Positions 7,056 through 64,000 are shown, counted from the stretch's first letter. The stretch: 64,000 nt of DNA from Clostridiales bacterium (GCA_031265685.1 JAISCI010000102.1:339-64338), one strand, 5' to 3'. The notes: generated from the sequence alone by a model not told the origin. Translations and numbers: made by a program.

Positions 7056-7105
7056 ATACCAATCCCATTTAGATTTTTATCCGTCATTTGGAATGGAATT
7101 AGCAT
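7056..7105. repeat. family-A palindromic element, short form (inverted relative to 5316..5380)
   Basis: ataccaatcccatt tagatttttatccgtcattt ggaatggaattagcat is nearly identical to the reverse complement of the 5.3-kb copy. The tmcAL TAA stop (7099-7101) lies inside its terminus. Confidence 0.8.
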
Positions 7106-8283
7106 TGTCCCCGCTCCACGGCGACCCCTCGGTAAAACTCTTCTCTCCGGCGGCATCCGCCAGTATACATATAGTACAGATCCGACGCGCGCAGCTCGGT
7201 TTCGAGCGTATCCGAGAAACCGCGCCTCCCCACGACGACGGGAACGGTCGCCCGCCGCGACATCTCCCCGACAAGCCGCTCCGCTCCGCTCCGGAAGCCC
7301 AATACGCGGATGTAATCCGGCTCTCTGCGGCACTCGTCCGGACCGATCCCAATCAGCGCCCGCAGCATCGCCCGGCGCACCGCCCCCTCGGACTGTGTAC
7401 GGGATTTGGCGGCGCTCACGATACCGTCTGCGTCGCGCGCGAAAGCCGCCGCGCTGATACGCCTCTCCAGTCCGCCGTCCGGCTCGGACCTTGTCAGGGC
7501 GTAGCGTATCGCGTCCGAGAACAGCGACAGCCGCCCCAATACCTTCGCACCCCCGATCGCCGCGAAGCTCTCCGCGGGGACCATTTCCCGGTACTGGGCT
7601 CCGGACAGCGCCGCGCGGCGCACGTCCGACGCGCTAGCGAAATCCCCGCGCCTGAGGGCGAACGGCTCCAGTTGACGCGCGCAAAATTCGCTGACCCGCC
7701 GGATAGCTTTCAGGTACTCCACGCCCAGCGTGTCGTTGGGATGGCCTCGCGGGGGAAACCGGCTTCCGTGGAATTTGGCTTGACTCGAAGCGTTATCGAG
7801 TGAGCCGCGCGGTAACGCGGCGCAAAACTCATCGCAGACTTCTCCGTAGGCGGCGGCGTATGGTATGCCCTCGCGGATCAGCCGCCGGAGCTTCTCGGGT
7901 AAACCGGGGTCGGCTTCGGCCCGGAGCGCCGCGTCCGCCGCCTCGGCTATCGGCTCGATCGCGCCCGTCTCGCTGCCGAAAGCGAACACGTCGCAGACGC
8001 CCGTGGCCGCGACGACCGACACGGACCCCCGCGCGAAAAACTCGGCGGAAGAGAGCGCGTACCGCGCCGGAAGCTCCAGCAGAACGTCCGCGCCAAGGCG
8101 CAGCGCGGTCTGGGCGCGGCTGAACTTGTCGATAAGCGCCGGTTCTCCGCGCTGGACGAAATTGCCGCTCATAACCGCGACAAGCGGCTTGCCCGGGAAC
8201 CGGTCTCGGAGCGTATCCAGAAAATACTTGTGCCCGTTATGGAACGGATTGAACTCCGCCGCGAAGCCGACCGCGCCGGTCAT
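7099..8283 (-). CDS. tmcAL: tRNA(Met) cytidine acetate ligase (YlbM/UPF0348 nucleotidyltransferase)
   Basis: 394 aa. N-terminal EFNPFHNGHKYFL...VAVMSGNFVQRGEPA is the TmcAL signature. Confidence 0.85.
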   Translation of the reverse strand: MTGAVGFAAEFNPFHNGHKYFLDTLRDRFPGKPLVAVMSGNFVQRGEPALIDKFSRAQTALRLGADVLLELPARYALSSAEFFARGSVSVVAATGVCDVFAFGSETGAIEPIAEAADAALRAEADPGLPEKLRRLIREGIPYAAAYGEVCDEFCAALPRGSLDNASSQAKFHGSRFPPRGHPNDTLGVEYLKAIRRVSEFCARQLEPFALRRGDFASASDVRRAALSGAQYREMVPAESFAAIGGAKVLGRLSLFSDAIRYALTRSEPDGGLERRISAAAFARDADGIVSAAKSRTQSEGAVRRAMLRALIGIGPDECRREPDYIRVLGFRSGAERLVGEMSRRATVPVVVGRRGFSDTLETELRASDLYYMYTGGCRRREEFYRGVAVERGQC

Positions 8284-10760: not shown

Positions 10761-10770
10761 GGGGGGGGGG
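10761..10770 (+). repeat. G10 homopolymer occupying the Shine-Dalgarno position of the XRE gene
   Basis: ttgtt-GGGGGGGGGG-c-ATG. The run ends 1 nt before the ATG at 10772. Confidence 0.9.
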
Positions 10771-10771
10771 C

Positions 10772-11107
10772 ATGTCCATCAACAGCAGAATAATTGATGG
10801 GTTGGAATCCCGCAACCTGAAGCAAAGAGAACTCTGTGCGGCTATCGGCATAGCTGCGTCCGCTCTGAACAACTGGCTTAAGCTCGGAAGGAGTATTCCA
10901 TCCGAATATATAATCCCTATATCCAAATTTATAGAGGTGAACATCCACTGGATGCTGACCGGCGAAGGCGAGATGAGCCGGAACGCCGCCGCGCGGCCTG
11001 TTATTGATGCGCCATCCCCCGAAGAATCCGCCGAACTGCGCCGCTATTTCGACCGTCTGCCCGCTTTCAGCGTGGCAAAGGGTGGCTTATGCCCAATTGC
11101 TGGCTGA
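10772..11107 (+). CDS. XRE-family helix-turn-helix transcriptional regulator
   Basis: 111 aa. LKQRELCAAIGIAASALNNWLKLGRSIPSEYIIPISKFIEVNIHWMLTGEG is a phage-repressor-like HTH_3. Confidence 0.8.
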   Translation: MSINSRIIDGLESRNLKQRELCAAIGIAASALNNWLKLGRSIPSEYIIPISKFIEVNIHWMLTGEGEMSRNAAARPVIDAPSPEESAELRRYFDRLPAFSVAKGGLCPIAG

Positions 11108-11216
11108 TGAGGCCACGGAGTGAAGCGCGCCTCACCCGCGTTTCCGTTTTGGCTCCCAGTTGCTCGAAAGATACCGCTCGTTGCCTTTGCGCCCTTCGCG
11201 CCATTGTGCAGCAAGG

Positions 11217-11305
11217 GATTTTGCGTGACAGAATTTTGCGTAAATCGAAGCATTATCATGTGGTTCAAATGAAAATGCTATGCAAACTTCAGTCACGCAA
11301 ACTTC
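11217..11305. repeat. family-B long element (60-nt core 11231..11290) nested in a GATTTTGCGTGAC/GTCACGCAAACTTC stem
   Basis: gattttgcgtgac a [gaattttgcg taaatcgaagc attatcatg tggttcaaat gaaaatgc tat gcaaacttc] a gtcacgcaaacttc. Confidence 0.7.
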
Positions 11306-11394
11306 AGTGGCGCAAGCCCCACGCCGAGGCTTGCTGCGGTTATGGTCTTACCCACGCCGCCTTTTCCCATGTCAATAAAGATTGTTTTGCCCAT
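11293..11394 (-). pseudogene. ParA/MinD-type ATPase, N-terminal 29-33 codons only
   Basis: GGAGGA-N7-ATG, then MGKTIFIDMGKGGVGKTITAASLGVGLAPLKFA-stop. It has the deviant Walker A KGGVGKT. The reading frame runs into the repeat at 11217..11305, which supplies the last codons and the TGA. Confidence 0.6.
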
Positions 11395-13975: not shown

Positions 13976-14564
13976 TCCGTCGGACAATTCGGATATTGAA
14001 TCGTATATAAGAAAGTTAGATAAAATATTAACGTTAAAATCGGTGTGGCGCGAGTCGGCGGTCCGGCTGTCGGACTCGGGGGTATATGCGGACGGGCTGT
14101 TTCTGCCGGGGCGGGACATCGCCCGCTTCCTCGCGAGAGACGAAAGATGTATCCTCGCCGCCGTCACGCTGGGCGCGGAAGCCGACAGGCTCATCGAGTC
14201 GGCGCGGATCGTTTCCGTCTACGAGGGCTACATGACCGACGCGGCGGCTTCCGTTCTTGCCGAGCGGCGGTTAGACGCCTCCGTTCTCGCGGGTTCAGGC
14301 GAGAACGCGGCGGGTTCAGGAAAAAACCGGCCCAGGTTCTCCCCCGGATACGGCGACTTGCCGCTGTCGGTTCAGACGGAGTTTCTCAGCTTCCTCGACG
14401 CCGGCCGGCGGATCGGGCTGTTCGCGTCCCAGGACGGCCTTCTGACCCCGAGGAAATCCATAACGGCGGTTATCGCGAAAAACGCCGCTCCGCCCGGCTG
14501 CGAAACGTGCCGCCTGTCCGGGGATTGCGAACGGAAGAAGAGGGGGATGACCTGTGGATCTTAG
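13968..14564 (+). CDS. stand-alone methionine synthase reactivation (AdoMet-binding) domain protein
   Basis: 198 aa. RFSPGYGDLPLSVQTEFLSFLDAGRRIGL...LLTPRKSITAVIA resembles the MetH C-terminal activation domain. The C-terminus has a Cys cluster, CETCRLSGDC. Confidence 0.75.
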   Translation: MFDPSDNSDIESYIRKLDKILTLKSVWRESAVRLSDSGVYADGLFLPGRDIARFLARDERCILAAVTLGAEADRLIESARIVSVYEGYMTDAAASVLAERRLDASVLAGSGENAAGSGKNRPRFSPGYGDLPLSVQTEFLSFLDAGRRIGLFASQDGLLTPRKSITAVIAKNAAPPGCETCRLSGDCERKKRGMTCGS

Positions 14565-20556: not shown

Positions 20557-20728
20557 TACCAATTCCATTTTGATTTGTGGATAAAAAATTTTCAAGCTTC
20601 AGCGCGTCCGCGCGGTTCTGAATTTTGCTTGGTTCGAAGCATTATCGCGTGAACCAAGCGATAATGCGACGCAAAATTCTAGGCGCGGGTCGTTTAGACT
20701 GAAAATTTTTATCCAATGGAATTAGTAT
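20556..20728. repeat. family-A palindromic element, full length, carrying a 60-nt family-B core (20620..20679)
   Basis: ataccaattccatt / ggataaaaaattttcaag / GC-rich core plus B core / ctgaaaatttttatcc / aatggaattagtat. It starts on the A of the permease TGA stop. Confidence 0.85.
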
Positions 20729-20797
20729 GAAAATCTTGGGGCTCCGCCCCAAACCCCGGCAGGGCTTTGCCCCGCACCCGCGCTGTGGATGGATTGA

Positions 20798-20886
20798 AAA
20801 AGCCGCGCAACGGAAGTTTGCGTGGTTTGGAGCATTATTGATTGAACCACTCAATAATGCGGAGCAAACTTCCGTTGCGCGGCTTT
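20798..20886 (-). terminator. 23-bp-stem hairpin enclosing a 60-nt family-B core (20813..20872); probable divIVA terminator
   Basis: aaagccgcgcaacggaagtttgc ... gcaaacttccgttgcgcggcttt. On the minus strand it is followed by a T run and begins 4 nt after the divIVA stop. Confidence 0.65.
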
Positions 20887-23966: not shown

Positions 23967-24059
23967 ATACTAATCTCCGTCTAATTGAGAGAAAAGATTT
24001 TTCAAGACGATCCGCGCGGGCTTGAAAAATCTTTTCATACCTATAAACGGAGATTAGTA
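23967..24059. repeat. family-A palindromic element (CTCCGT terminus variant)
   Basis: atactaatctccgt / gaaaagatttttcaag / acgatccgcgcggg / cttgaaaaatcttttc / acggagattagta. Confidence 0.85.
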
Positions 24060-26140: not shown

Positions 26141-26167
26141 ACCAATTCTCCTGTCTGTTAAAGCTCC

Positions 26168-26338
26168 GCGCCAATCTCCATTTAAGAATATAGAAAAGAT
26201 TTTCAAGTCCGCGCCTGAAGCAGGGTAATTTTCGCGTGATGAATTTTGCGCGGCTTACGCAAAATTCCATCACGCGAAAATGCGATCGAAACTCGTCCAT
26301 ACAAAAATTTACTTCCGCCAATCTAACGGAGATCAGTA
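26168..26338. repeat. family-A-like composite element with a long family-B hairpin (26227..26280)
   Basis: ccaatctccattt / gaaaagattttcaag / ... aattttcgcgtgatgaattttgcg cggctta cgcaaaattccatcacgcgaaaa ... / acggagatcagtat. It fills the whole gap between two Hsp70 genes. Confidence 0.8.
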
Positions 26339-27934
26339 TTACACCCGCGTCTTCTTCCCCCGCTGGGGCGTGAAGTTTCGCTTATAGCCGCCGCCGGCGT
26401 CCTCAACCATGCCGGAGACTACCCCGCCCTCCTCGGCGGCGGACAGCGTGATTCGCAGCCTTGTCCCGCCGCTGGGGCGCGGAGGAAGTCCCGTTACCTC
26501 TATGTCGCCGATCAGCCGGCAGTCCTCCACGGGATCGTCCCGGTTGATCCGCTCCAGAACGCGCAGATCGAAACGCGTCATGTCTTCGGGGCGGCTTCCG
26601 GAGAGCGTGAACACGGCGTCTTTGCGCGCCAGAGCGTAAGGCGTGCCGCGCCGGATCAGCGTATAGAAAACCTTTTTCGCGCCGTTTGTCACCTCCAGCC
26701 CGATGTCGTGCGGAACGCTGCCGGAGAACGCAACGGCGCGGCGCTCGGCGGAGAACTCCCGCCCGGCGAGAAGCCCCATCTTCATCGCCGCGTAGTACGC
26801 CGCGCCGACCGATATGTCCAGCGCGGGGCGCTCGGACTGATATATCTTCGATTCGTCGCCGAACACGCCGTTCAACATATCCCGCACCCAGGGCGCGGCC
26901 GACGATCCGCCCTCCAACAGCACGCGGCTGATGTCCCCGGGAGCCAGAGCGCCCTTGTACGCGCCGCGCAGCGCCTTTTGCGTAAGCTGACGCGTCTTCT
27001 CGATAAACGCCGCCGCCAGTCCCTCATAGCGCTCGCGCGTCAGGTTCTCGATAAACGGCGGTATCATAAACGTGAACGGCACGCGGAACGACTTCGCGCC
27101 CGAGAGCCGTTCCTTCGCCTCGCGCGCGCGGATCTCCACTTCGGCGCGGTTTTCCGGGACGATCGATTCGCGGGTCTGGCCGGTTTTCGCCTCTATCCAG
27201 TCGTAGCACTGTTCGGTAAGAATAGCGTCGAGCGCGTCTCCGCCGTGGGCCGCGTCTCCGCCCTCGGATATGACCGTCAGCCGCGTCAGTCCCGGCGGTT
27301 CCTCCGTCACGCTGAAAACGGTTATATCGAGCGTGCCGCCGCCGAAGTCGAACACCAGCACGCGCTCGCCGTCCTCAAGCTCGCGCTTGAAATTCATAGC
27401 GAGCGCGGCGGCCTTCGGCTCCTCGATCAGGCAGATCAGGCCGCCGCCCAGCCCCGCCAGCTCGCAGGCGCGGATTGTCGCCTTCTTCGCGGCGTCGTCG
27501 AACCCATAAGGCACTGATACGACCAGTCCGGCTATCTCGGCTTTCGGGTTTATCGCTCGCGCGCGCGACGCCAGTTCTTCCAATATCTTCGCGGATATTT
27601 CCTCCGGCGCGTAGTCCTTGCCGCCCAGCCGGAACGTCTTGTCCGTGCCCATATACCGCTTCGCCGAACGCACCGTGGAATCGGGGTACAGCTTTATCGA
27701 GCGGTAGGCCTCCTCGCCGACGACCCACTCGCCGCCGTCGCGCCACTGCACAACGGAAGGCAGCGGTATCTTGCCGAACCCGTCCGAAACGTCGATGGTT
27801 TCGGGCGCGCCGGACGACGGCGAATAATAACTGACGACGGAGTTGGTCGTGCCTAAGTCTATGCCGAGCACGAACCAGTCCTCGGGCAGGGACCCGCGCC
27901 GGTCTATATCTTTTTTGCAATCTTCCCACTTCAT
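26339..27934 (-). CDS. Hsp70-family ATPase, lidless paralogue
   Basis: 531 aa. LGIDLGTTNSVVSYY, VFDFGGGTLDITVF, LLEGGSSAAPWV. It ends just after the beta-sandwich SBD. Confidence 0.85.
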   Translation of the reverse strand: MKWEDCKKDIDRRGSLPEDWFVLGIDLGTTNSVVSYYSPSSGAPETIDVSDGFGKIPLPSVVQWRDGGEWVVGEEAYRSIKLYPDSTVRSAKRYMGTDKTFRLGGKDYAPEEISAKILEELASRARAINPKAEIAGLVVSVPYGFDDAAKKATIRACELAGLGGGLICLIEEPKAAALAMNFKRELEDGERVLVFDFGGGTLDITVFSVTEEPPGLTRLTVISEGGDAAHGGDALDAILTEQCYDWIEAKTGQTRESIVPENRAEVEIRAREAKERLSGAKSFRVPFTFMIPPFIENLTRERYEGLAAAFIEKTRQLTQKALRGAYKGALAPGDISRVLLEGGSSAAPWVRDMLNGVFGDESKIYQSERPALDISVGAAYYAAMKMGLLAGREFSAERRAVAFSGSVPHDIGLEVTNGAKKVFYTLIRRGTPYALARKDAVFTLSGSRPEDMTRFDLRVLERINRDDPVEDCRLIGDIEVTGLPPRPSGGTRLRITLSAAEEGGVVSGMVEDAGGGYKRNFTPQRGKKTRV

Positions 27935-38496: not shown

Positions 38497-38636
38497 ACTA
38501 ATCTCCACACCAAAGGATACCGAATATTTTTTCGATCCGCGACTGATAAGTTTGCGTGGTTCATGCAAACTTCAGAAGCCGCGCGGATGCGCAAGCTCGA
38601 AAAAATATTCGGCACAAATCTAAGTGGAATTAGTAT
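38495..38636. repeat. family-A palindromic element with an internal AAGTTTGC-N9-GCAAACTT hairpin (38548..38572)
   Basis: atactaatctccac / ccgaatattttttcga / core / tcgaaaaaatattcgg / aagtggaattagtat. It fits exactly between the stop of 38639..40885 and the trmK ATG. Confidence 0.85.
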
Positions 38637-54249: not shown

Positions 54250-54306
54250 GAAGTTTGCCTGAATCCGCAGACTTTCAAGAAATTTCGCCTGGATCCGCGA
54301 AATTTC
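54250..54306. repeat. two tandem family-B-like hairpins
   Basis: gaagtttgc ctgaatcc gcagactttc, then gaaatttcgc ctggatcc gcgaaatttc (a perfect 10-bp stem). The second encodes the last 10 codons and the stop of ilvE. Confidence 0.75.
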
Positions 54307-55372
54307 GTACACGCGTCACCCAGTTGAATATATCCGGCGCGTTTCCGTACTGGATCGCCGTAAGCTCGTCATACAGACGCTTCGACAGCGCCCCGGTCCT
54401 TCCGCCGGACACATCAATCTTCTGGCCGCCGAAGTTGAGTTCGCCGATCGGCGAGATGACGGCCGCCGTGCCGCTGCCAAAGGCTTCCTCCAACGATCCG
54501 TCCTTAGCCGCCGTCAGCAGCTCGTCCGCCGTAATCCGGCGCTCGGATACGGGGACGCCCCAGTGTTTGGCCAGCCGTATCACCGAATCGCGCGTTACGC
54601 CCGGCAGTATGCTGCCGGCAAGAAGCGGGGTAACCAACTCGCCGCTTATTTTGAAGAACGCGTTCATAGTTCCGACTTCCTCGACGTATTTGCGCTCTAC
54701 GCCGTCGAGCCACAGCACCTGCGTGTACCCGAGCCGCTCGGCCTTGACCTGCCCCGCGAGCGAGCTGGCGTAGTTCGCGGAGGCCTTCGTGTAGCCGATA
54801 CCGCCTCGCACCGCGCGGACATACTCGTCCTCCACATAGATCCTGACGGGGTTAAGCCCTTCTTTATAATACGCGCCGACCGGCGACAGGATTATCATGA
54901 ATTTATACGTGGCCGACGGATGCACGCCCAGTCCCGCGTCCGTCGCGATCACAAACGGCCTGATATACAGCGACGTGCCCGCGGCCCGAGGTATCCAGTC
55001 ACGCTCGATCTTGAGCAGCTCGATCAGCGCGTCCAGCGCCGTGTCAACGTCTATGCGCGGTATGATCATGCGCTCGTCCGAGCTGTTCAGCCGCTCGAAG
55101 TTCTTACGCGGCCTGAAAAGGAGTATATCGCCGTTTTTCGCGCGGTACGCCTTCAGCCCCTCGAACACGGACTGCCCGTAGTGGAACACCATGCACGCCG
55201 GATCGAACGGGATCGGGCCGTAGGGCGCTATCCGCGCGTCCCGCCACTCCCCGCCCGAATAGTCCATGACGAACATGTGATCGGTAAACACCTTGCCGAA
55301 AGTCAGCGTATCGTCGGCCGGCTTCGGCTTCCGGGATTTAGACAGCTCAATAGTCATTTCCATAATATTCAC
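54275..55372 (-). CDS. ilvE: branched-chain amino acid aminotransferase
   Basis: 365 aa, class IV aminotransferase (FEGLKAYR..., [21 protein letters not shown]). The C-terminal [10 protein letters not shown] is repeat-derived. Confidence 0.9.
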
Positions 55373-56445
55373 CTCAGCGCCGTTATTTTATTCGCTATCG
55401 CTTCACCCATCTCTTCGGTCGTAACAGCCGGGCCGCCCGGAGCGGCTATGTCCGCCGTCCGTATACCGTCCTCCAGCGCGGCGTACACGGCGATTTCCAA
55501 GGCGTCGGCCTCCCGAGTCAACCCGAACGAATACCTCAGCATCATTCCCGCCGAGAGTATCGCCGCGCACGGGTTGGCGATATTTTTGCCCGCGATATCC
55601 GGAGCGGAGCCGTGGACAGGCTCGTACAGCCCGAAACCGTCCGCGCGGAGGCTGGCCGAGGGCAGCAGTCCGATGGAACCCGTTATCTGCGCGGCTTCGT
55701 CCGAGAGTATGTCGCCGAACATATTGCTCGTCAGCAGCACGTCGAACCGCGACGGATCGCGGATCAGCTGCATGGACGCGTTATCGACGTACATATGCTC
55801 AAGCTCCACGCCCGGGTAATCCCGCGCCGCCTCGATAACCGTCTCGCGCCAGAGCCGCGACGACTCCAGTACGTTGGCCTTGTCCACGCTGGTCACGCGC
55901 CCGCGCCGCCCGGCGGCCAATCCGAACGCCACGCCGGCGATACGCCGCACCTCCCCGCGCGAATAACGCTCCACGTCATACGCCGAGTCGCCGTCTCGGC
56001 CCTTCTCGCCGAAATATATGCCCCCGGTCAGCTCCCGCGCGACGAGTATATCAATATCCCCGGTCGCTTTGAGCGGGCAGGCCGAGGCGAGCGCCGGTAT
56101 GAGCTTCGCGGGGCGGAGGTTCGCGAACAGGCCAAGCCCCGCTCGCAATCCCAGCAACCCCGCCTCAGGGCGCTTGTCCCCCGGCAGGCCGTCCCACCGC
56201 CATCCGCCCACCGCTCCCAGAAGCACGCCGTCGGCGGCGCGGGCCGTCTCGAGCGTCTCGGCGGGCAGCGGCTCACCCGCGGCGTCTATAGCCGCGCCTC
56301 CGGCAGGCAGTTCCGTATATTCAAACACACGCCCGAAACTACCGCCCACGGCGTTCAGAACGCGGACGGCCTCGCGAGTAACCTCCGGGCCTATGCCGTC
56401 CCCGGGGATCAGGGCGATTTTATACTTTTTACCGCCGCCGCTCAC
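55369..56445 (-). CDS. leuB: 3-isopropylmalate dehydrogenase
   Basis: I trimmed the track ORF to the GTG at 56445, which overlaps the leuD TGA, giving 358 aa. [55 protein letters not shown]. Confidence 0.9.
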
Positions 56446-56942
56446 CCGATCACCCCGTTCAGTTTGGCGCGCGTCCGGTTCACAAGCCCGCCGTACTCGA
56501 TGATCTCGCGCATAAACGGCGGGAACGGCTCCGCCCGGAACGTCCCGCCCGTCGTGTGATCGGTGATAACGCCGCCGTCCGTATCGACGGACACGCGGTC
56601 GCCCGCGCGTATCGCGGCGGCGGCCTCGGGGCACTCGACTATCGCCAGTCCGATGTTTATCGCGTTGCGGAAGAATATCCGCGCGAACGTGGCCGCTATG
56701 ACGCACGATACGCCCGAAGCCTTGATCGCCAGCGGCGCGTGTTCCCGGCTGGAACCGCAGCCGAAGTTCCTCCCGCCCACGATTATGTCGCCGGGACGGA
56801 CGGCGCCCGCGAAACCCGGGTCGATGTCTTCCATACAATGCGCCGCCAGCGCCGCCGGATCGGACGAGGCCAGATACCGCGCCGGGATGATCACATCCGT
56901 GTCCACGTCGTCGCCGTATTTGAAGACCGTCCCCGCGCTCAC
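56442..56942 (-). CDS. leuD: 3-isopropylmalate dehydratase small subunit
   Basis: 166 aa. [31 protein letters not shown]. Confidence 0.9.
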
Positions 56943-57478
56943 CTTCCGCCGCCCCCTCGGATTACGCTGATGTGCAGCCCGGCGAGAACGTCGAGCGCCT
57001 TTTCGCCCAGCGCCGCGTCATAGCTGGCGGTAAGCGCGGCGTCCACTATTATCGGCGTGTCGGGCGCGGCCGTCTTCGCCAGAACCGCGTTCGCCGCGAC
57101 GCAGATGTTGGAAACAAGCCCGCAAAGCTCGATAGAATCAAAGCTCTCGCGGCGCAGATAGTCAAACAGATCCGCCGAGCCGAACGTATCCTTGACAAAC
57201 ACGGGGTCGCCCGAGCGAACGGCGCCGGCCACTTCCCCAAACAGTTCCCAGCCGCGCGTACCGCGCGTACAATGCGCTACAGGCAGAAACCGCCCCTCGA
57301 TAGTATCCGCGTAGCCGTCGCCATGCGTGTCATAAGTAAACGCCACGGTATCGCCGTCATCGCGGTAAGAGCGGATACGTTCCGCGATAGGCGCCGCCAG
57401 CGTCTCCGCCCCGTCAAACCCCAGCGACCCGTCCACAAAATCATTCTGATAATCCACAACAATCAAAAGTTTAGCCAC
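56939..57478 (-). CDS. isochorismatase-family cysteine hydrolase (nicotinamidase/PncA-like)
   Basis: 179 aa, GTG start with a [38 protein letters not shown] (catalytic Cys). Located between leuC and leuD and overlapping the leuD start by 4 nt. Confidence 0.8.
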
Positions 57479-57536
57479 AATCCATCCTCCAATACAGTTC
57501 TTTTGCTTCTTTTCTTTTAAGAAAAGAAGCGGGACT

Positions 57537-57612
57537 GAATTTGCCGGCTTCAGGGCAAATTCAAAGCCGGCTTCAGGGCAAATTCAAAGCTGGTTTCAGG
57601 GCAAATTCAACG
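57537..57612. repeat. 3 x 23-bp tandem array of GGCAAATTC-type hairpin arms
   Basis: gaatttg + ccggcttcagggcaaattcaaag (57544-66) + an identical copy (57567-89) + ctggtttcagggcaaattcaacg (57590-612). Just upstream, at ~57505-57530, is a separate 10-bp-stem hairpin gcttcttttc/gaaaagaagc. Confidence 0.85.
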
Positions 57613-57618
57613 GTAATC

Positions 57619-58872
57619 TTAATACGCTGGCCTGATATACCCCGCCAGAGCGCTGGCCGCCGCCGTCTCCGGAGAAGCTAAGTACACCTCGGACTCCGGG
57701 TGTCCCATGCGCCCGACAAAATTGCGATTGGTAGTCGAGACGCACACCTCGCCTTTCGCCAGCACGCCCATGTGCCCGCCCAGACACGGACCGCACGTCG
57801 GCGGCGAGAACACGAAACCCGCCTCGACGAACGCCTCCGCGATTCCCTCGCGCAGCGCGCCGAGATAGATACGCCGCGTGCCGGGCAGCACTATCCCGCG
57901 CACGCCTTCCGCCAGGCGCCGTCCCCGGATTATGTCCGCCGCCTTTCGCAGGTCGGAGAGCCGGCCGTTCGTGCAGGAGCCTATCACGACCTGATCAATC
58001 CTCACGCCGGAACATTCGGACGCGGCCGCCGTGTTGGACGGCAGGTGCGGACGCGATACCATCGCGTCCACGCGCGACATGTCGATGTCGTAAGTTTTCT
58101 CGTACTCCGCGTCGCCGTCCGGCGAGTACTCAGTATAGGGTGCGATCCTGCGCCCGGCCAGATATTCGCGCGTAACGCCGTCCACCGGGAACACGCCGTT
58201 TTTCGCGCCGCATTCGACCGCCATGTTGGCTATCGTAAACCGGTCGTCCATGGTGAGATTGGCGACGCCTTCCCCGGAGAACTCCATCGACTTATAAAGA
58301 GCGCCGTCCACGCCTATCATTCCGACGACGGCGAGAATTACGTCCTTGCCCGACACTCCGGGGCGCGTCGCCCCCGTGAGCCTGAATCGCAGTGTCGGCG
58401 GAACTTTCAGCCAAACTTTGCCGGTGGCCATCGCGCAGGCCAGGTCGGTCGAGCCGACGCCCGCGGCGAAAGCGCCGAGAGCGCCGTATGTGCACGTGTG
58501 CGAATCCGCTCCGATGATAAGCTCGCCGGGCGCGGCCAAACCCTCCTCCGGGACAAGACAGTGCTCGATGCCGGCGAAACCCACCTCATAGTAATGGATT
58601 ATGCCTTGCTCCCGAGCGAATTCGCGTACTATCCGAGCGTTTTCGGCGGATTTGATGTCCTTGTTCGGCGTAAAATGATCCGGAATAAGCGCGATCTTCG
58701 ACTTGTCGAACACCCCGCCCGCGCCGAGCCGCCCGAACTCCCGGATCGAGACCGGCGCGGTTATGTCGTTGGCGAGAGCCAGATCCACGCCGGCCTCTAT
58801 GAGCCGCCCGGGGGCGACGGCGGCAAGCCCGGCCTTCGCCGCCAGTATCTTCTCCGTTATCGTCATTCCCAT
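57619..58872 (-). CDS. leuC: 3-isopropylmalate dehydratase large subunit
   Basis: 417 aa, aconitase family. [22 protein letters not shown] and PPTCGPCLG are the Fe-S ligand motifs. Confidence 0.95.
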
Positions 58873-58897
58873 GCGATCACCCCAATCTCAGTAAAAC

Positions 58898-58933
58898 ATT
58901 ATAAAGTATACAACTTTTGCGGAAGGAACGCAA
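58898..58933 (-). promoter_or_regulatory. candidate promoter of the leu/ilv operon
   Basis: On the minus strand: TTGCGT, 17 nt spacer, TATACT, overlapping a second TATAAT. It lies 25-35 nt upstream of the leuC ATG. Confidence 0.4.
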
Positions 58934-59261
58934 GAGCTGTATTTGTCATGGAGTGCCGGAACGCAAGTTAAATATGACCTATGGGTGATAACAGGATATG
59001 CCCGCGACGCGGAGCGACCGTGCGTATAACACCTGCCGTAACACGCGAACCGCGTCAAATCCGAGGGATTTAAGGTTACAAAAACACTTCGGCCCGGGCA
59101 AACGCGAGGTTTGACAGACAGTTCGTCTTTGGCGCGTACAAGCCCAGCCACAGACCGGCAAGTAAATCCCGCACGCGCAAATACTCCGGTCTTCCCCTCG
59201 CTCTCATCAATTTCAAACGACCGCGGCTTGAATTTTGACACGCTCTCCGCAAAAATAACTA

Positions 59262-59290
59262 TTGACATTACTCATCCAAAGCGATATACT
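59262..59290 (+). promoter_or_regulatory. promoter of the tRNA cluster
   Basis: TTGACA (59262-67), 17 nt spacer, TATACT (59285-90), about 45 nt upstream of tRNA-Pro. Confidence 0.6.
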
Positions 59291-59333
59291 GTCGTTACGG
59301 TTTCGATGGCCGTCGTTTGCGCGTTCGGTCAGT

Positions 59334-59407
59334 CTGGGTGTAGCGTAGTTTGGTAGCGCGCCAGAATGGGGTTCTGGAGGTCGCAGGTTCAAATCCTGTT
59401 ACCCAGA
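59334..59407 (+). tRNA. tRNA-Pro (anticodon GGG)
   Basis: Hand-folded cloverleaf. Acceptor CTGGGTG/TACCCAG, D arm GCGT..GCGC, anticodon stem CCAGA/TCTGG with loop ATGGGGT, T arm GCAGG-TTCAAAT-CCTGT. CCA is not encoded. Confidence 0.9.
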
Positions 59408-59425
59408 TTTTGGTTTTGCGGTTTT

Positions 59426-59499
59426 GGCGGAATAGCTCAGCTGGCTAGAGCATGCGGTTCATACCCGCAGTGTCGGGGGTTCGATTCCCTCTTCCGCTA
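59426..59499 (+). tRNA. tRNA-Met (anticodon CAT; elongator type by anticodon stem, Ile2 not excluded)
   Basis: Acceptor GGCGGAA/TTCCGCT, D arm GCTC-AGCTGGCTA-GAGC, anticodon stem TGCGG/CCGCA with loop TTCATAC, T arm GGGGG-TTCGATT-CCCTC. Confidence 0.85.
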
Positions 59500-59513
59500 T
59501 GTTTCATATGTTT

Positions 59514-59585
59514 TGGGCTGTCGCCAAGCGGTAAGGCAATGGACTCTGACTCCATCATTCGAAGGTTCGAATCCTTCCAGCCTAG
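59514..59585 (+). tRNA. tRNA-Gln (anticodon CTG)
   Basis: Acceptor TGGGCTG/CAGCCTA (U1-A72, as in Gln tRNAs), GCCAAGCGGTAAGGCA D arm, anticodon stem ATGGA/TCCAT with loop CTCTGAC, T arm GAAGG-TTCGAAT-CCTTC. Confidence 0.9.
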
Positions 59586-60280
59586 TAAACCTTTGGAATC
59601 GTTAATGATTGAAAATCAATTAACATCGCCCGCCCCATTTTCAAGGTTCGCTTAATGTATTGCTCGTTGAATTTCCGTAACTCATTATAACTGCGCTCCG
59701 CCACCCTCTGTTTACAGTTTGCCTGATCACGGCGCTTTGTTTGGCTCGCGGATTTTTCAATTATAAAATGACTTTTAGTTCGCTTGTGAACCGCGCAACG
59801 GGTTTAATATCAGACCGCGCAAAAACTCCCAAAGCCATAGCAAAAGCCTTCGAAATATGGTACAATTAAAGCAACGCAAACGATTGCGGAGGCGACGACC
59901 ATGCCATACAAACAGGGCGAAAGCCGAAACCAACTGACGCTGACCCCAATATGTCTTGACGACTATATCGGAGAGGACAGCATATGCCGCGTGATCGCGG
60001 CGTACGTGGGCAGCCTTGACATGTCGGCCCTTGGTTTCAAATACGCGGAGACGAAAGACACAGGCCGCCCGCCGCACGACCCGGCGTCGATGCTCGCGCT
60101 GTATCTGTACGGCTACCTAAACCGCGTCCACTCGTCGAGGCGGCTTGAAGCGCAAACTCGCCGCAACGTCGAAGTCATGTGGCTGATGGAGAAGCTGACC
60201 CCGGACGACAAAACGATCTGCAACTTCCGCAGGGACAACGCCGCCGCGCTGAAAGGCGTGTTCCGGCAGTTCAGCTTGAA

Positions 60281-60307
60281 GAATTTTGCTTGAACCACGC
60301 AAAATTC
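60281..60307. repeat. 27-nt family-B hairpin, copy 1 in the transposase
   Basis: gaattttgc ttgaaccac gcaaaattc. Its internal TGA ends ORF 59901..60293, and the frame shifts by +1 across it. Confidence 0.9.
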
Positions 60308-60486
60308 CATGGTGCAATCGGCAAGGTTTGTACGGCAAAGAGCTTGTGGCGGTTGACGGCACGAAAATCCGCGCAAGCAGTTCCCGCCGGAACATTCACA
60401 CGCAAAAGGGCACGGAAAAGGAGCTTGCATCCGTCGAGAAGAAAATCAGCGAATATCTGAGCGAGTTGGAGTCGAACGACGCATAT

Positions 60487-60513
60487 GAATTTTGCGTGAA
60501 CCAAGCAAAATTC
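60487..60513. repeat. 27-nt family-B hairpin, copy 2 in the transposase
   Basis: gaattttgc gtgaaccaa gcaaaattc. It starts on a codon boundary and is read through as EFCVNQAKF. Confidence 0.9.
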
Positions 60514-60668
60514 CTTACCGAAGCCGGCGACGCGAGGCTCGACGCTGCTGCGCTCCATGAAGCGTTAAAACGTCTGCAAGAGAAAAAGGACAAGCTTGCA
60601 GATTGGCTGACCCGGATTGAGGCGAACGGCGGCGCGGAGATTTCGACCGTCGACCCGGACGCCCAAGT

Positions 60669-60695
60669 GAATTTTGCTTGGTACACGCAAAATTC
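60669..60695. repeat. 27-nt family-B hairpin, copy 3 in the transposase
   Basis: gaattttgc ttggtacac gcaaaattc. It is read through in frame as NFAWYTQNS. Confidence 0.9.
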
Positions 60696-60817
60696 CTTTA
60701 TGCACTCCGGCGGCGACGCGCGTCCGCTCGACGCTTGTTACAGCGTGCAGGCCGTTGCGGACGCGAAGCACAAGCTGATCGTTGATTTCGACGTTTCAAC
60801 ATGTCCCGAAGACAAAG

Positions 60818-60844
60818 GAATTTTGCTTGAACCACGCAAAATTC
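60818..60844. repeat. 27-nt family-B hairpin, copy 4 in the transposase
   Basis: gaattttgc ttgaaccac gcaaaattc, identical to copy 1. It is followed by ataag, and the transposase continues in another frame from ~60849. Confidence 0.9.
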
Positions 60845-61599
60845 ATAAGGGGCGTTGCGTCAAATGACGCAAGCCGCGAAAGAGATTATGGGCGTCGAGA
60901 CAATCTCCGTCGTCGCAGACAAAGGTTACTACGACGCGACCGATATCTCAAACTGCGAGCAATCCGGCACAACCTGTTATGTGGCGGTTGTTGACAGCTA
61001 TTCCCACGCGCCCGATCCTAGATATGACCGCAAAAATTTCAGATACGACGCCGAAAATGACTGCTATATATGCCCCGACGGGCAAATATTACCATTCAAC
61101 AGACTTCAAAAGCGCGAAGACGGCGGCGCTGACAGACGTTACCAGAACAGAAGAATTTGTAAAAACTGTGCAAACAGAGAAAAATGCACCATTAATAAAG
61201 CCGGACGGATTATCAGCCGCAACCCGAACCAAGGCGGTCTTGATACGATGAACGCCCGAATGAAAACCGAAGCGGGCAGGGAAATTTTCCGCCAGCGCAA
61301 GAAAATTATAGAACATCCGTTCGGAACGACCAAAGCGGTTTGGGGTTTCAAACAGTTTCTCTGCCGAACGCGGGAGAAAGTGACCGGCGAACAGTCGCTG
61401 GCCTTCTTGGCGTATAATTTTCGGCGGGTCTTTAGCATTTTCAGGCAAAACGGTAAGAGCATGGCGGCGGCAGTGCTGTGATAAACGCCGCTTTTTGTTT
61501 TTTTGCCGCAAAGGCTGACCAATAAAAGGAAATTACGGCGCTCCGCCTGATTTCCCAGTGCGCGCTGCCGCCCTATAAGGCGGCTTTTTGCGCGGTCTG

Positions 61600-61982
61600 T
61601 CTTGGACGACGTCTGGAAGGCGCTTGGCCGGTACGCGCGTGATGTCCGCCTTGAGGGTCTGGCGGGTCTTGTCGAGGGCGGTTCCAATGGAGACACGATA
61701 GCAGGGGCAGTCCGATTCCGCGGATTTCTAAGCCGCGCAGCGTGAACTCCGCGCCGTCGTCTATCGGTGTGCGAGGATTTCCTCAACGATGGCTGTGATT
61801 TCAGGCGCGGTCAGCGTCTGTCCCTTTATGGTTGCGTCCATGTCCATAGTGCCGCGGGTGTCGATGCCGACCATCGCCGAGATGAGCATACCGACCTTGA
61901 GGATGCGGGCGGCCGATTTTTCGCTTGACGTATACACGTATAAGTAAAAACATTCAAAGTCACCATATCGAGGTGTTAGCAT
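61600..61982 (-). pseudogene. gene debris abutting the IS right end (unidentified)
   Basis: Coding-looking minus-strand peptides lie in three frames: ...GIDTRGTMDMDATIKGQTLTAPEITAIVEEILAH / TPIDDGAEFTLRGLEIRG / CPCYRVSIGTALDKTRQTLKADITRVPAKRLPDVVQD. The last runs straight into the IS terminal repeat. Confidence 0.3.
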
Positions 61983-62121
61983 AAATTGATATTAAGATTA
62001 TGGAATGATCCTTGGTCTTGTCTGAAAACTCTTACGACTGCCCCGCGGTATTCTATCGCGCAAGCCGGCCGAAAGCGGTTTTAAGACGAGACCTAAACAG
62101 CGAAGGTGAGGAGAGTTAACT

Positions 62122-62820
62122 ATGTCAATGCCCACCATTTCCCTTTCTGACATAAGCTCGGATATTGTCAGAAATAATATCGCCGCTTCTATCGCGCTGC
62201 AGGAAGCGGCGCTTGCCCATATCCTGAACGCGGAGGGCGAGAAATTACAGGCGGTTATCGCAATAGAAGACGTAACCATCGAGCAGCTTACGCAAGTCAA
62301 CACATCCGTCGTTGATCTGATGGAGCACGCGGCGTCTTTTGAATTGGCGCTGCAGGAAAAACTGCAGCACGTTTTTCCCTCCGCCAGGCCGGTGGAGCCT
62401 ATTATGGTTATGGCGGTTGGTACTAAGTCGTTATTCGGCGGATCTCCGGCCGGAGGCGTCGTGGCGTTTCGCGAAAGCTTGTATGCTTATGGTTCCGCTG
62501 TTTCACACGCGGCGGATACGGTAGATTTTATAATCAACGAAGATGGTAATTACCGGATTAACTATCAATCGGTGATATCCAACGAAGCGTTGTCTCCGGG
62601 GCAACCTATAAACGAAGATCTCTCTCTTACCTCGGGCAGGTACGGCATTTTAGCGACAAATACCATTACGATAAACACTACGTTTGTACAGAATAGCACG
62701 ATTGCATCCTTGCCCGCGGGAGACGTACTGCGCTTGAGTCTTGTGGATAATAGTGGATCCCTCGAAATATCAGCGATCGCATCCGCAATATCAATCGAAA
62801 AAGTGAACTTAGTATTGTAA
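62122..62820 (+). CDS. hypothetical protein with an N-terminal SIALQEAALAHILNAEGEKLQ helix; possible spore-surface (BclA/BxpB C-terminal-like) protein
   Basis: 232 aa with a GGTGAGGAGAG RBS. The C-terminal half alternates short beta-strand-like segments (GNYRINYQSVI, GDVLRLSLVDN, AISIEKV), reminiscent of C1q/TNF-like exosporium domains. The functional call is a recollection, not a search result. Confidence 0.55.
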   Translation: MSMPTISLSDISSDIVRNNIAASIALQEAALAHILNAEGEKLQAVIAIEDVTIEQLTQVNTSVVDLMEHAASFELALQEKLQHVFPSARPVEPIMVMAVGTKSLFGGSPAGGVVAFRESLYAYGSAVSHAADTVDFIINEDGNYRINYQSVISNEALSPGQPINEDLSLTSGRYGILATNTITINTTFVQNSTIASLPAGDVLRLSLVDNSGSLEISAIASAISIEKVNLVL

Positions 62821-62830
62821 AATGGCGCTG

Positions 62831-62995
62831 ATACTGTTTCAGAAGTAAGGTTGATATTTGTTTTGTAAGATTCGCGCTAAGGTAATTTCGCATCGCATTT
62901 TCGCTTGAACGAATTTTGCCTAAAGCCGCAAAATTCTGTCACGTGAAAATTACCTTCTTATAAAACAAATGTCACTATCTAACCTGAAACAGTAT
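62831..62995. repeat. composite nested palindrome (ATACTGTTTCAG termini) with a family-B hairpin 62911..62936
   Basis: atactgtttcag ... taaggtaatttcgc ... attttcgcttgaac gaattttgcc taaagcc gcaaaattc tgtcacgtgaaaat tacctt ... ctgaaacagtat. Confidence 0.8.
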
Positions 62996-63232
62996 GAAGA
63001 CCAACAGGAAACAGCCGGCAATAGACTTTCCGTACACCCCCTGACGGGAACTGTGCGGGAAGTCTAATAACAGCGGTGACTGCCGAGGGCTTTTCGCGCG
63101 CGGCAAGGAAGCTCGCTCCGCGTAATCGCGAATACTTTACGCAAGCAGAGTCCGTTAGACCTGTTCCGAAATCTATTAGTTATGTCAATCAGGTTTTGAT
63201 AAAATAATTTGAATGAGGGGCTTCGTCCCCCC

Positions 63233-63394
63233 AGGGCGTGTTTGAAAACTAGCCCCGGCAGATTCGCGAGATGATTTTTCGATAATCAAAAAACTAAAAG
63301 TAGACGCTCAGCAACGCTACGCTAGACTTTTAGTGACACAGAGCAGCGGAAAATCAGCCGCGAAAATGTCGCGCCTAGTTTTCAAACACGCCCT
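63233..63394. repeat. composite nested palindrome with 20-bp perfect termini
   Basis: agggcgtgtttgaaaactag ... actaaaagt ... acttttagt ... ctagttttcaaacacgccct. There are inner arms gatttttcg/cggaaaatc. CCCCAGGG occurs on both flanks. Confidence 0.8.
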
Positions 63395-63441
63395 AAGTTC
63401 CCCAGGGCTGTTCAATAAGACCATAAATGGAGGAACGATAT

Positions 63442-63942
63442 ATGGCTAATAATGATTATCAGGATTATAACTATAACGCCGCCGCCAATCACGGCATAAA
63501 AGCATACAATCAGAGCGGGATTCCGCTGCCGCCATGTTCCAATCCGGTTGGAGACGACGGGCAATACGCGGATTACAGGTATTATTGCTGGTGTAAAAAA
63601 CGCGGCTGCCCTCACCATCAGAAAAATGAAAGATGTCCATACGATCATTGTCAGGAGAGCGGCAAAGAGATATCAGTTGACCGCGCAAAAGAAAACGACG
63701 TCCGGTCCTGCTGCGCGGATATCATCGCAAGCATAGCTCTGACAGAAACGTCTATAGCTTATATTCTAAACGCGGAGGGTGAAAAGATTCAAAAGATACT
63801 TGAAATATCATGTTGTCCGAACAAAATTTTAGAAGTCAACTGTAACGTAAAGGAAACCCTTTGCACAGCTACACGGCTGGAAGAGCTGTTGTGCAAAAAG
63901 CTGGAAATTGTAGCGGAACTGTTAAAATACGTTCGTTGTTAG
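63442..63942 (+). CDS. Cys-rich hypothetical protein sharing the SIAL-x-E-x-x-(L/I)A-x-ILNAEGEK(L/I)Q motif
   Basis: The track ORF starts at 63427, but its GGAGGA overlaps that ATG, so the ATG at 63442 is better placed. 166 aa with 14 Cys, including CWC, CPHH, CPYDHC, SCC, SCCP and CNVKETLC. The motif reads ASIALTETSIAYILNAEGEKIQ. Confidence 0.6.
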   Translation: MANNDYQDYNYNAAANHGIKAYNQSGIPLPPCSNPVGDDGQYADYRYYCWCKKRGCPHHQKNERCPYDHCQESGKEISVDRAKENDVRSCCADIIASIALTETSIAYILNAEGEKIQKILEISCCPNKILEVNCNVKETLCTATRLEELLCKKLEIVAELLKYVRC

Positions 63943-64000
63943 GAGGAATGCGCGTCCTGTAAGCGCTAAACTAAAAACTAGGCCCAAAAACTCGGTAATA

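Follow-up and report, generated by a model that had tools for sequence, protein, structure and literature searches.

What carried the same short hairpin four times into a single transposase gene, and what became of that gene? The locus lies in a 64,000-nt stretch of DNA (the window) from a Clostridiales bacterium MAG, whose proteins are MDR1210081-MDR1210106 with locus tags LBK41_*. A pattern scan of the 64-kb window showed perfect GAATTTTGC-N9-GCAAAATTC hairpins at 60281, 60487, 60669, 60818 and 26241, five matches compared with 0.01 expected from shuffles, and a version with an N8 loop was found at 62911. The first four are the 27-nt hairpins that the original prediction had placed in the transposase gene, and their loops were also as it had given them: ttgaaccac (60281), gtgaaccaa (60487), ttggtacac (60669) and ttgaaccac (60818). 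A further hairpin at 14282 (loop gggttcag) was judged unrelated to this family.

The four hairpins are located in an IS1182-family insertion sequence (IS) on the plus strand at 59811-61599, 1,789 bp long including 126 nt of hairpin insertions. Its perfect 15-bp terminal inverted repeats, CAGACCGCGCAAAAA, occupy 59811-59825 and 61585-61599, and homology to the related copies L060, L061 and L062 starts and stops at these repeats. Owing to the insertions, the transposase coding region (59901-61481, plus strand) is divided among three different frames, with ORFs at 59901-60293, 60286-60867 and 60855-61481. When 60279-60309, 60484-60516, 60669-60698 and 60818-60849 were deleted, a single 484-codon ORF with no other lesion was obtained, confirming that a colinear transposase reappears once the hairpins are taken out. 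The rebuilt protein matched intact IS1182-family transposases of 484-486 aa over the full length, the best being 74% identical. Pfam domains PF05598, PF01609 and PF13751 were found in the homologues, some of which are named IS1182 family transposase, and these domains together with the perfect 15-bp terminal repeats place the host gene in that family.

In a tblastn search, P0001 aligned in three frames that run collinearly and are interrupted precisely where the hairpins lie. Comparison with intact homologues, which the original prediction had proposed as a check, showed the hairpin-encoded peptides in none of the best 120 (0/120), so these segments are not native to the transposase. Among the same 120 homologues, the motifs FSLWC, DPDAxxMH and CPxDxGAL were contiguous in 98, 77 and 76, respectively. 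In all likelihood, the four hairpin insertions have inactivated the transposase gene.

The window IS copy was then aligned with five copies of the same lineage (L060, L061, L062, L066 and L067), which sit at different loci with different flanks. Related loci were drawn from the MAGs Nm470_bin129 (Oscillospiraceae) and Gx481_bin52 (binned as Treponema) and from the JGI metagenomes 3300042612, 3300042643 and 3300009784; judging from accession style and isolate names, we take the window MAG and these data sets to be from termite gut. P0289 represents a second IS copy in the window's own MAG; exact protein look-ups gave no entry for it or for the C-terminal ORF. Empty alleles of all four window sites were present in related IS copies from other loci and samples, and those in L060, L066 and L067 gave net added lengths of 31, 33, 30 and 32 nt at sites 1-4. 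At three more sites (5, 6 and 7), which the window copy leaves vacant, related copies contain further insertions. The more distant IS copies L063 and L064 contained no hairpins.

At site 1 (CAGCTTG^TGGTGC), the window carries unit 1 (60279-60309, plus strand), 31 nt of AAGAATTTTGC-ttgaaccac-GCAAAATTCCA inserted without target duplication, which shifts the frame and supplies the TGA that ends the first ORF, as had been predicted. The empty alleles read CAGCTTG/TGGTGC in L060 and CAGTCTG/TGGTGC in L066, and the site is also filled in L061, where a second hairpin is nested in the loop. Unit 2 at site 2 (60484-60516, minus strand) is the reverse complement AAGGAATTTTGC-ttggttcac-GCAAAATTCATA and adds a net 33 nt in frame (YEFCVNQAKFL); the site is empty in L066 and filled in the window, L061 and L062 with three different loop states, the loops of the orthologous units in L061 and L062 being flipped relative to the window. 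Unit 3 at site 3 (60666-60697, minus strand), the reverse complement AGGAATTTTGC-gtgtaccaa-GCAAAATTCACT, places 32 nt where the empty alleles have 2 nt (GCCCA-TA-TTATGCA in L066 and GCGCA-CA-TTATGCA in L067), a net gain of 30 nt in frame (NFAWYTQNS); the site is filled in the window and L060, and by a nested form in L062. Copies 2 and 3 are thus read through as EFCVNQAKF and NFAWYTQNS, in agreement with the original prediction. Unit 4 at site 4 (60815-60846, plus strand), 32 nt of AAGGAATTTTGC-ttgaaccac-GCAAAATTCAT at GACA^AAGGGGCG, shifts the frame. This site (GACA^AAGG) is empty in L066 and L067, which read GACAGTGG and GATAGCGG, respectively, and is filled in the window, by an identical unit in L060 and by a loop-flipped unit in L061.

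Site 5 (60602-60603, GCAGA^TTGGCTG) is empty in the window, L066 and L067, and is filled in L060 and L062 by a 34-nt variant with a AATTTTCGC stem. Site 6 (60920-60921, GAC^AAAGGTTAC, that is GAC^AAGGG) falls within the ADKGY motif; it is empty in the window and L067, and is filled by units of 31-32 nt in L060, L061, L062 and L066. The protein P0281, from L066, is clean across sites 1-5 and ends ADK/EFCVN at site 6. Site 7 (60708-60709, GCACTCC^GGCGGC) is empty in the window, L060, L066 and L067, and only L062 has it occupied, by a 35-nt unit. The mosaic IS copies act as a natural insertion trap, in which seven two-allele sites define the ends of the unit, its lack of duplication and its target preference.

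From these alleles, the consensus unit was 5'-AAGG-AATTTTGC-t-TG-nnn-CA-c-GCAAAATT-CAT-3', so that the DNA inserted in the common orientation reads AAGG-AATTTTGC-N9-GCAAAATT-CAT. The mobile unit is therefore not the 27-nt hairpin first proposed; it is ~32 nt long, with asymmetric ends, AAGG or RAAG at the 5' side and CAT at the 3' side. Net gains of 30-35 nt were measured. The junctions vary by ~2 nt, with overlaps or replacements of 1-2 nt at sites 1 and 3. The alignment with related IS copies, also proposed beforehand, set these boundaries and showed no target duplication at sites 1, 5 and 7 when compared with the empty alleles. AAG precedes most units, and at sites 1, 5 and 7 it comes with the unit, not from the target. 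At sites 4 and 6 the target itself starts with AAGG and AAG stands on both flanks, at site 6 in L061 and L066. These two sites share the target GACAAAGG, and insertion shows some sequence preference. Two of the five GACAARGG targets in the window are in the transposase (sites 4 and 6), and its conserved motif ADKGY (GACAARGG) has been struck repeatedly; the other three GACAAGGG sites, in housekeeping genes, are unoccupied.

Folding the unit as single-stranded DNA gave a 9-bp stem followed by a 1x1 t.c mismatch and a 2-bp TG/CA stem that closes a triloop (-7.9 kcal/mol, z = -4.3 compared with shuffles). Four loop forms are common, ttgaaccac, gtggttcaa, ttggttcac and gtgaaccaa, and they represent two independent flips, one of the t.c mismatch orientation and one of the triloop orientation. 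The description of the copy 2 loop as having the opposite sense was half right: the loop differs in orientation, but it is not the reverse complement of the copy 1 loop and reflects the two flips. Loops flip by minute inversions, and stem variants are perfectly compensated.

Hairpins within hairpins were found in intergenic DNA. A 60-nt composite at 20620-20679 (plus strand) has the outer stem GAATTTTGC, the inner stem GCATTATCGC and the loop gtgaaccaa; another composite at 20799-20886 (plus strand) has a 23-bp perfect outer stem (a GAAGTTTGC variant) around an inner hairpin with the loop ttgaaccac, and the composite at 11207-11314 (plus strand) consists of several nested layers. The 60-nt composites at 20620, 20813 and 11231 have one layout, namely outer stem, ttggttc, GAA, inner 10-bp stem, 9-nt family loop, inner stem, GAC and outer stem, and the composites fold with z = -4.6. 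Two nested palindromes, at 26228-26281 and 62897-62950, have the GAATTTTGC hairpin at the centre, the latter with an 8-nt loop. The hairpin at 38548-38572, AAGTTTGC-gtggttcat-GCAAACTT, lies within a larger palindrome (38520-38612). Such "onion" palindromes with a central family hairpin were observed at 26228-26281, 62852-62974, 38520-38612 and 20557-20735. In the IS copies, a second hairpin is nested in the loop at site 1 of L061 and at sites 3 and 6 of L062, where other copies have a simple hairpin. Site 1 of L061 and site 6 of L062 show exactly the composite layout where others are simple; composites are therefore formed when a unit inserts into another unit's loop, the point of entry lying after ttggttc. 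The insertion trap has thus caught nesting in the act and shows how the 60-nt composites and onion palindromes are built up.

The original prediction also held that no other intact coding sequence has an internal copy, which proved wrong. The gene at 7099-8283 is tmcAL, matching Thermotoga TmcAL (5y0r) with E = 1.8e-34, and it contains a decayed 60-nt composite, a hairpin in a hairpin, at 7771-7830 (plus strand), which is in frame and encodes EFCAALPRGSLDNASSQAKF. This insert is collinear with the intergenic 60-nt composites and, in an alignment with 19 homologues, forms a unique segment of 17-20 residues. It now folds poorly (z = -1.9) and is therefore old. In addition, two neighbouring family hairpins with GAAGTTTGC and GAAATTTCGC stems lie at 54250-54306, and the ORF at 54275-55372 terminates inside the second (54279-54306), which forms its 3' end. 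The family thereby shows both the gain of peptide segments, in tmcAL and at gene 3' ends, and the decay of IS and prophage genes.

The same unit was found beyond the IS lineage. In L004, an Oscillospiraceae MAG, two units with the same loops lie in a prophage PAPS-reductase gene, and in L032 the unit, again with the same loops, lies near and inside a phage portal gene. The genes that are clearly disrupted all belong to mobile elements: the IS1182 transposase (at least five copies), the prophage PAPS reductase and the phage portal. That the hairpins are native sequence of this transposase lineage, or an artefact of assembly or library preparation, has next to no probability. Beyond the perfect palindromes nothing speaks for it, whereas 120 intact homologues are without the segments, close copies have empty alleles, the unit occurs in different genes and in assemblies made independently from four or more samples, and some copies are decayed or in frame. 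The hairpin unit is a mobile element, neither native sequence nor an assembly artefact. The homologues without the segments, the seven empty and filled sites, and the prophage and in-frame tmcAL copies support the earlier suggestion of an insertion element of very small size and recent activity that, like the Rickettsia RPEs, also enters ORFs.

As to why one gene holds four copies, a rough gene map of the window assigned ~55.3 kb to coding sequence (CDS), 1.8 kb to the IS and 6.9 kb to other DNA. At least 15 family loci were counted in the 64 kb. By compartment, the census gave 4 in the 1.8-kb IS, ~7-10 in the 6.9 kb of intergenic DNA and 1-2 in the 55 kb of other CDS. The density was 2.2/kb in the IS and ~1-1.4/kb in intergenic DNA, and that of the IS was ~100 times that of other coding DNA. 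Since the IS density is close to the intergenic density, the IS behaves like neutral, tolerated DNA and not like a special target. Clustering in the IS is thus probably explained by tolerance, the two GACAAAGG targets and recombination among IS copies. The alternative raised earlier, a process that prefers and inactivates this IS, keeps weak support from the target shared by sites 4 and 6, but the similar intergenic density argues against it.

The history of the IS copies bears on when the units arrived. At shared occupied sites, the hairpin arms showed 0 differences in 26-45 nt per pair, whereas the ±60-nt flanks differed by 11-22%; by a rough calculation, the chance of zero arm differences at the flank rate is ~1e-2 to 1e-4 per pair. 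The host ORF had a dN/dS of 0.19 (window vs L060, dS 0.51, with sites 3 and 4 filled in both) to 0.36. Invariant arms and such ratios are unexpected from the simple decay of a dead gene, and therefore need hot-spot re-insertion, recombination or maintenance of the arms. The insertions are either younger than the IS divergence and recurrent at hot spots, or else their arms are being maintained. Recurrence at hot spots is favoured by the differing site 6 junctions (H+AAGG in L060 vs H+ATAAG in L061 and L066) and by clear tracts of recombination. Mosaic structure was seen in the IS copies, 100%-identical tracts lying within 80-93% identity, so recombination can spread hairpins among them. Large deletions were seen in other IS copies.

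We consider it very probable that the four hairpins are insertions, independent or inherited, of a non-autonomous mobile hairpin element of ~32 nt into an IS1182-family transposase. The unit inserts without target duplication, repeatedly beside AAGG (GACA^AAGG) and also within the loops of units already in place; such loop insertion builds the 60-nt composites and the larger nested palindromes, and IS copies swap segments by recombination. Copies would persist where they are tolerated: between genes, in IS copies that are dead or redundant, in genes of prophages, in variable loops of proteins and at the 3' ends of genes. Mobilisation would occur in trans, through an enzyme acting on single-stranded or extruded hairpins like the HUH Y1 transposases of IS200/IS605 and RAYTs. 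This step, drawn by analogy, is put forward tentatively, as something possible with clearly less than an even chance. The lack of target duplication and the asymmetric AAGG...CAT ends, features in common with HUH-mobilised elements and tagged REPs, speak for it. Neither the ten window ORFs scanned against Pfam nor the L004 and L032 contigs contained a candidate mobilising enzyme, including a RAYT (Y1 HUH). HUH transposition usually prefers one strand, yet units of both orientations lie within 600 bp of each other, and the junction lengths of 30-35 nt are looser than those of IS200/IS605 insertions; both observations count against an HUH enzyme. GC skew in the window tracks gene orientation too closely to judge strand bias relative to replication.

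The main rival is spread without any enzyme, by replication template switching, in which the fork stalls at a hairpin and the nascent strand jumps to another copy at 1-4 nt of microhomology (e.g. AAGG), copies it and returns. Inserts of ~30-35 nt with fuzzy junctions and no target duplication would result, which fits the observed range of added lengths, and the AAGG microhomology at sites 4 and 6 agrees with it, as do the junctions of sites 1 and 3, where 1-2 nt overlap or are replaced, and the loop flips and compensated stem variants, which are expected quasi-palindrome products. However, the AAGG...CAT ends are fairly constant even where the target offers no matching bases (sites 1, 5 and 7), and the co-copying of variable donor flanks that should accompany such switching was not seen, so we regard it as rather unlikely. 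A minimal MITE moved by a DDE transposase, possibly of IS1182 or IS5 type, with the 9-12-bp arms as terminal inverted repeats and a 3-bp AAG duplication, would account for AAG on both sides at site 4 and, in L061 and L066, at site 6. The IS terminal repeat also resembles the right half of the hairpin over 7-9 nt (C[AG]CGCAAAA), a similarity judged to be within chance (~0.03, our own rough estimate). Sites 1, 5 and 7 show no duplication relative to their empty alleles, the unit has asymmetric ends, and no parent IS was found whose terminal repeats match, which makes a MITE of this kind very unlikely.

Could the hairpins instead serve a function? They might be "locks" on mobile-element genes that are kept in place but can be excised reversibly, with invariant arms and a transposase ORF under purifying selection because precise excision restores it, or else the product of a dedicated system disabling IS and prophage genes; both readings together seem very improbable to us. 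A directed, defence-like process encoded by host or phage would explain why the clearly disrupted genes are all of mobile elements and why the conserved ADKGY motif (GACAARGG) was hit more than once. On the other hand, the family is mostly intergenic and also present in tmcAL, the IS is about as dense in units as intergenic DNA, and the three vacant GACAAGGG sites in housekeeping genes are what purifying selection predicts; we know of no gene associated with directed hairpin insertion, and a process of this kind stands very little chance. If the hairpins were instead not lethal to the gene, being precisely excised from the DNA or skipped, the transposase would be conditionally functional and the ORF and arms under selection. 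The ORF is indeed pristine apart from the hairpins, dN/dS is 0.19 between copies with sites 3 and 4 both filled, and the arms are invariant while flanks diverged, but mosaic recombination and re-insertion at hot spots explain the same data more simply, and other IS copies bear the large deletions. There is also no match of take-off and landing codons at the two frameshifting sites, and bypass of the gene-60 type was rejected: the frame resumes after a TAA codon (60846-48) at site 4 and after CCA at site 1, where the take-off codon is TTG. To our knowledge, splicing that skips hairpins in this manner has no example in bacteria, and we hold this explanation to be extremely unlikely. Insertion of a mobile hairpin element thus remains the preferred reading.

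The element was also compared with public data. In Rfam, neither the gathering nor the E-value thresholds gave a family for the hairpins or the composites. IMG/VR and the JGI metagenome collection gave 0 matches to the hairpin with family loops, and INPHARED phages and PLSDB plasmids gave no match. A composite-specific scan had one match, an unrelated hairpin. When the hairpin-encoded peptides were compared, as a synthetic query, with 5.8 billion protein clusters, only the window's own ORF was recovered, so the family is rare in public data. In a literature search, 26 papers contained both arm sequences; the ten of these that were listed dealt with primers and similar matters, none with a repeat element.

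Functionally, the hairpin family was classed with the REP, SDR, RPE and GC-cluster kind of element, although it lacks the GTAG/CGTC tag, doublets and extragenic location that define REPs, the target duplication of MITEs and the size of RPEs. Tagged REPs are hairpins of 20-40 nt bearing a conserved tag on one side and a short tail on the other; they make no target duplication and are mobilised by RAYT. Like REPs and REPINs, the present units are short hairpins (27-35 nt) in many copies, with tag and tail, a conserved 1x1 mismatch near the loop and no duplication; they are also occasionally intragenic and sometimes lie within larger palindromes. Unlike REPs, they have no GTAG or CGTC in either orientation, the tag being AAGG, and their stems are perfect and AT-rich in a genome of 61% GC. 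They are nested hairpin in loop, unlike the REPIN arrangement of inverted doublets at fixed spacing. With at least 4 copies per IS copy, further copies in prophage genes and many frameshifting insertions, they also depart from the mainly extragenic REPs. The host belongs to Clostridiales, a phylum outside those reported for tagged REPs, and REP-like tagged palindromes were not described from Clostridia in the literature searched. If confirmed, few bacterial mobile DNA units for which clean empty and filled sites exist would be smaller than this one (~32 nt), and the old question of what moves REPs, SDRs, RPEs and GC clusters would become testable.

The cyanobacterial elements SDR4-6, reportedly described by Elhai et al. 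in 2008, are said to be 21-27 nt, hairpin-forming, nested and nearly all non-coding. SDR5 sits inside HIP1, a precise sequence-specific insertion. We know of no mobilising enzyme for the SDRs. The present family resembles them in size class, nesting and mobility (empty and filled sites), which is a functional analogy and not homology: sequence and phylum are unrelated, and the units here riddle IS and prophage genes, with empty and filled pairs at hand. RPEs are CGTC-tagged palindromes of 100-150 bp that sit in frame within protein-coding genes, whose reading frame remains open. Here, units 2 and 3 and the composite in tmcAL, being in frame, are RPE-like, whereas a unit measures only ~32 nt (60 nt in nested form) and two of the four IS units shift the frame.

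Palindromic mobile units of 27-55 nt whose mechanism is not known also include the mitochondrial GC clusters of yeast (GC42), the double-hairpin elements of Allomyces and the byps of Magnusiomyces. In mitochondrial hairpins, substitutions fall mainly in the loops and stems are conserved, units merge and are shuffled, and GC42 spreads by homologous recombination at conserved flanks. The present units are likewise palindromic, change their loops, merge and can spread by recombination. The mitochondrial elements differ in being organellar, in making an AG target duplication and in being GC-rich within AT-rich genomes, opposite to the case here. The Magnusiomyces byps are bypassed by ribosomes, whereas bypass signals are absent at the frameshifting sites here. 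Bacterial MITEs (e.g. Correia/NEMIS) measure 70-300 bp, duplicate a target of fixed length and have terminal repeats in common with a parent IS. The present family shares with MITEs its non-autonomous nature, its inverted-repeat ends and its intergenic and sometimes intragenic location, and differs in size and in the lack of a fixed duplication; its similarity to an IS terminal repeat was limited to the 7-9 nt noted for IS1182. PATE-like elements of IS200/IS605 insert 3' of a fixed tetra- or pentanucleotide, also make no duplication and have subterminal hairpins at both ends, where the present unit has a single hairpin.

The tmcAL gene (7099-8283, minus strand), which encodes tRNA(Met) cytidine acetate ligase, carries a decayed composite, that is, a hairpin within a hairpin, of 60 nt in-frame at 7771-7830. 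The composite adds about 20 extra residues (EFCAALPRGSLDNASSQAKF) in a variable loop of the protein, and this segment was present in 0 of the 19 homologues compared. Between genes at 54250-54306, a pair of neighbouring family hairpins was observed, and the final ten codons and the stop codon of the ORF at 54275-55372 come from the second hairpin of this pair. The phage portal ORF of another locus (L032) likewise reads through a hairpin, at 4918-4942. In an Oscillospiraceae MAG locus with a prophage PAPS-reductase gene (L004), a hairpin unit at 3951-3983 overlaps the start of the ORF at 3958-4452. Since the unit, in reverse orientation, begins with ATG (ATGAATTTTGC...ACCTT) and overlaps the ORF start here, the start codon of a gene could come from such a unit.

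We compared the IS1182-family insertion sequence (IS) at 59811-61599, the transposase gene of which is broken by four hairpin units, with four related copies from different loci and samples (L060, L061, L062 and L066). The copies were mosaics, with tracts of 100% identity lying within sequence of 80-93% identity, as seen between the window and L060 at 59821-60060 and between the window and L062 at 61134-61284. Deletions in several copies end at hairpins, in L062 between insertion sites 3 and 6 and in L061 after site 2. The terminal repeat of the IS, CAGACCGCGCAAAAA (59811-59825 and 61585-61599), has C[AG]CGCAAAA in common with the right half of the hairpin, ...CACGCAAAATTC. This similarity is probably due to chance (rough estimate ~0.03), but binding of the hairpins by the IS transposase, should it occur, would make it important.

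Three tRNA genes (59334-59585) are located immediately upstream of the IS, with a gap of about 225 bp between the last tRNA gene and the IS. The last 8 kb of the window (56001-64000) had a GC content of 0.548, compared with 0.61-0.64 in the rest, and contain the IS, unannotated ORFs and a protein encoded at 62122-62820 that matches the BclA C-terminal domain only weakly, below the threshold. This region may be an island.

Multi-layer "onion" palindromes of 100-180 nt were found at 20557-20735, 23968-24059, 26160-26340, 38520-38612 and 62852-62974. The outer motifs AAAAGATTTTTCAAG, AATGGAATTAGTAT and TACTAATCTCCGT recur among them and most have a family hairpin at the centre. These palindromes possibly form a MITE-like family of their own, targeted by the hairpins. 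At 57536-57609, an arm (TGAATTTGCC) is followed by a unit of about 23 nt (GGCAAATTCAAAGCCGGCTTCAG) repeated three times in tandem, and this is an array built from a family-like hairpin. A run of about ten Gs (~10763-10772), which could be a slippage tract, abuts an ATG on its upstream side and precedes a small ORF for a putative HTH regulator.
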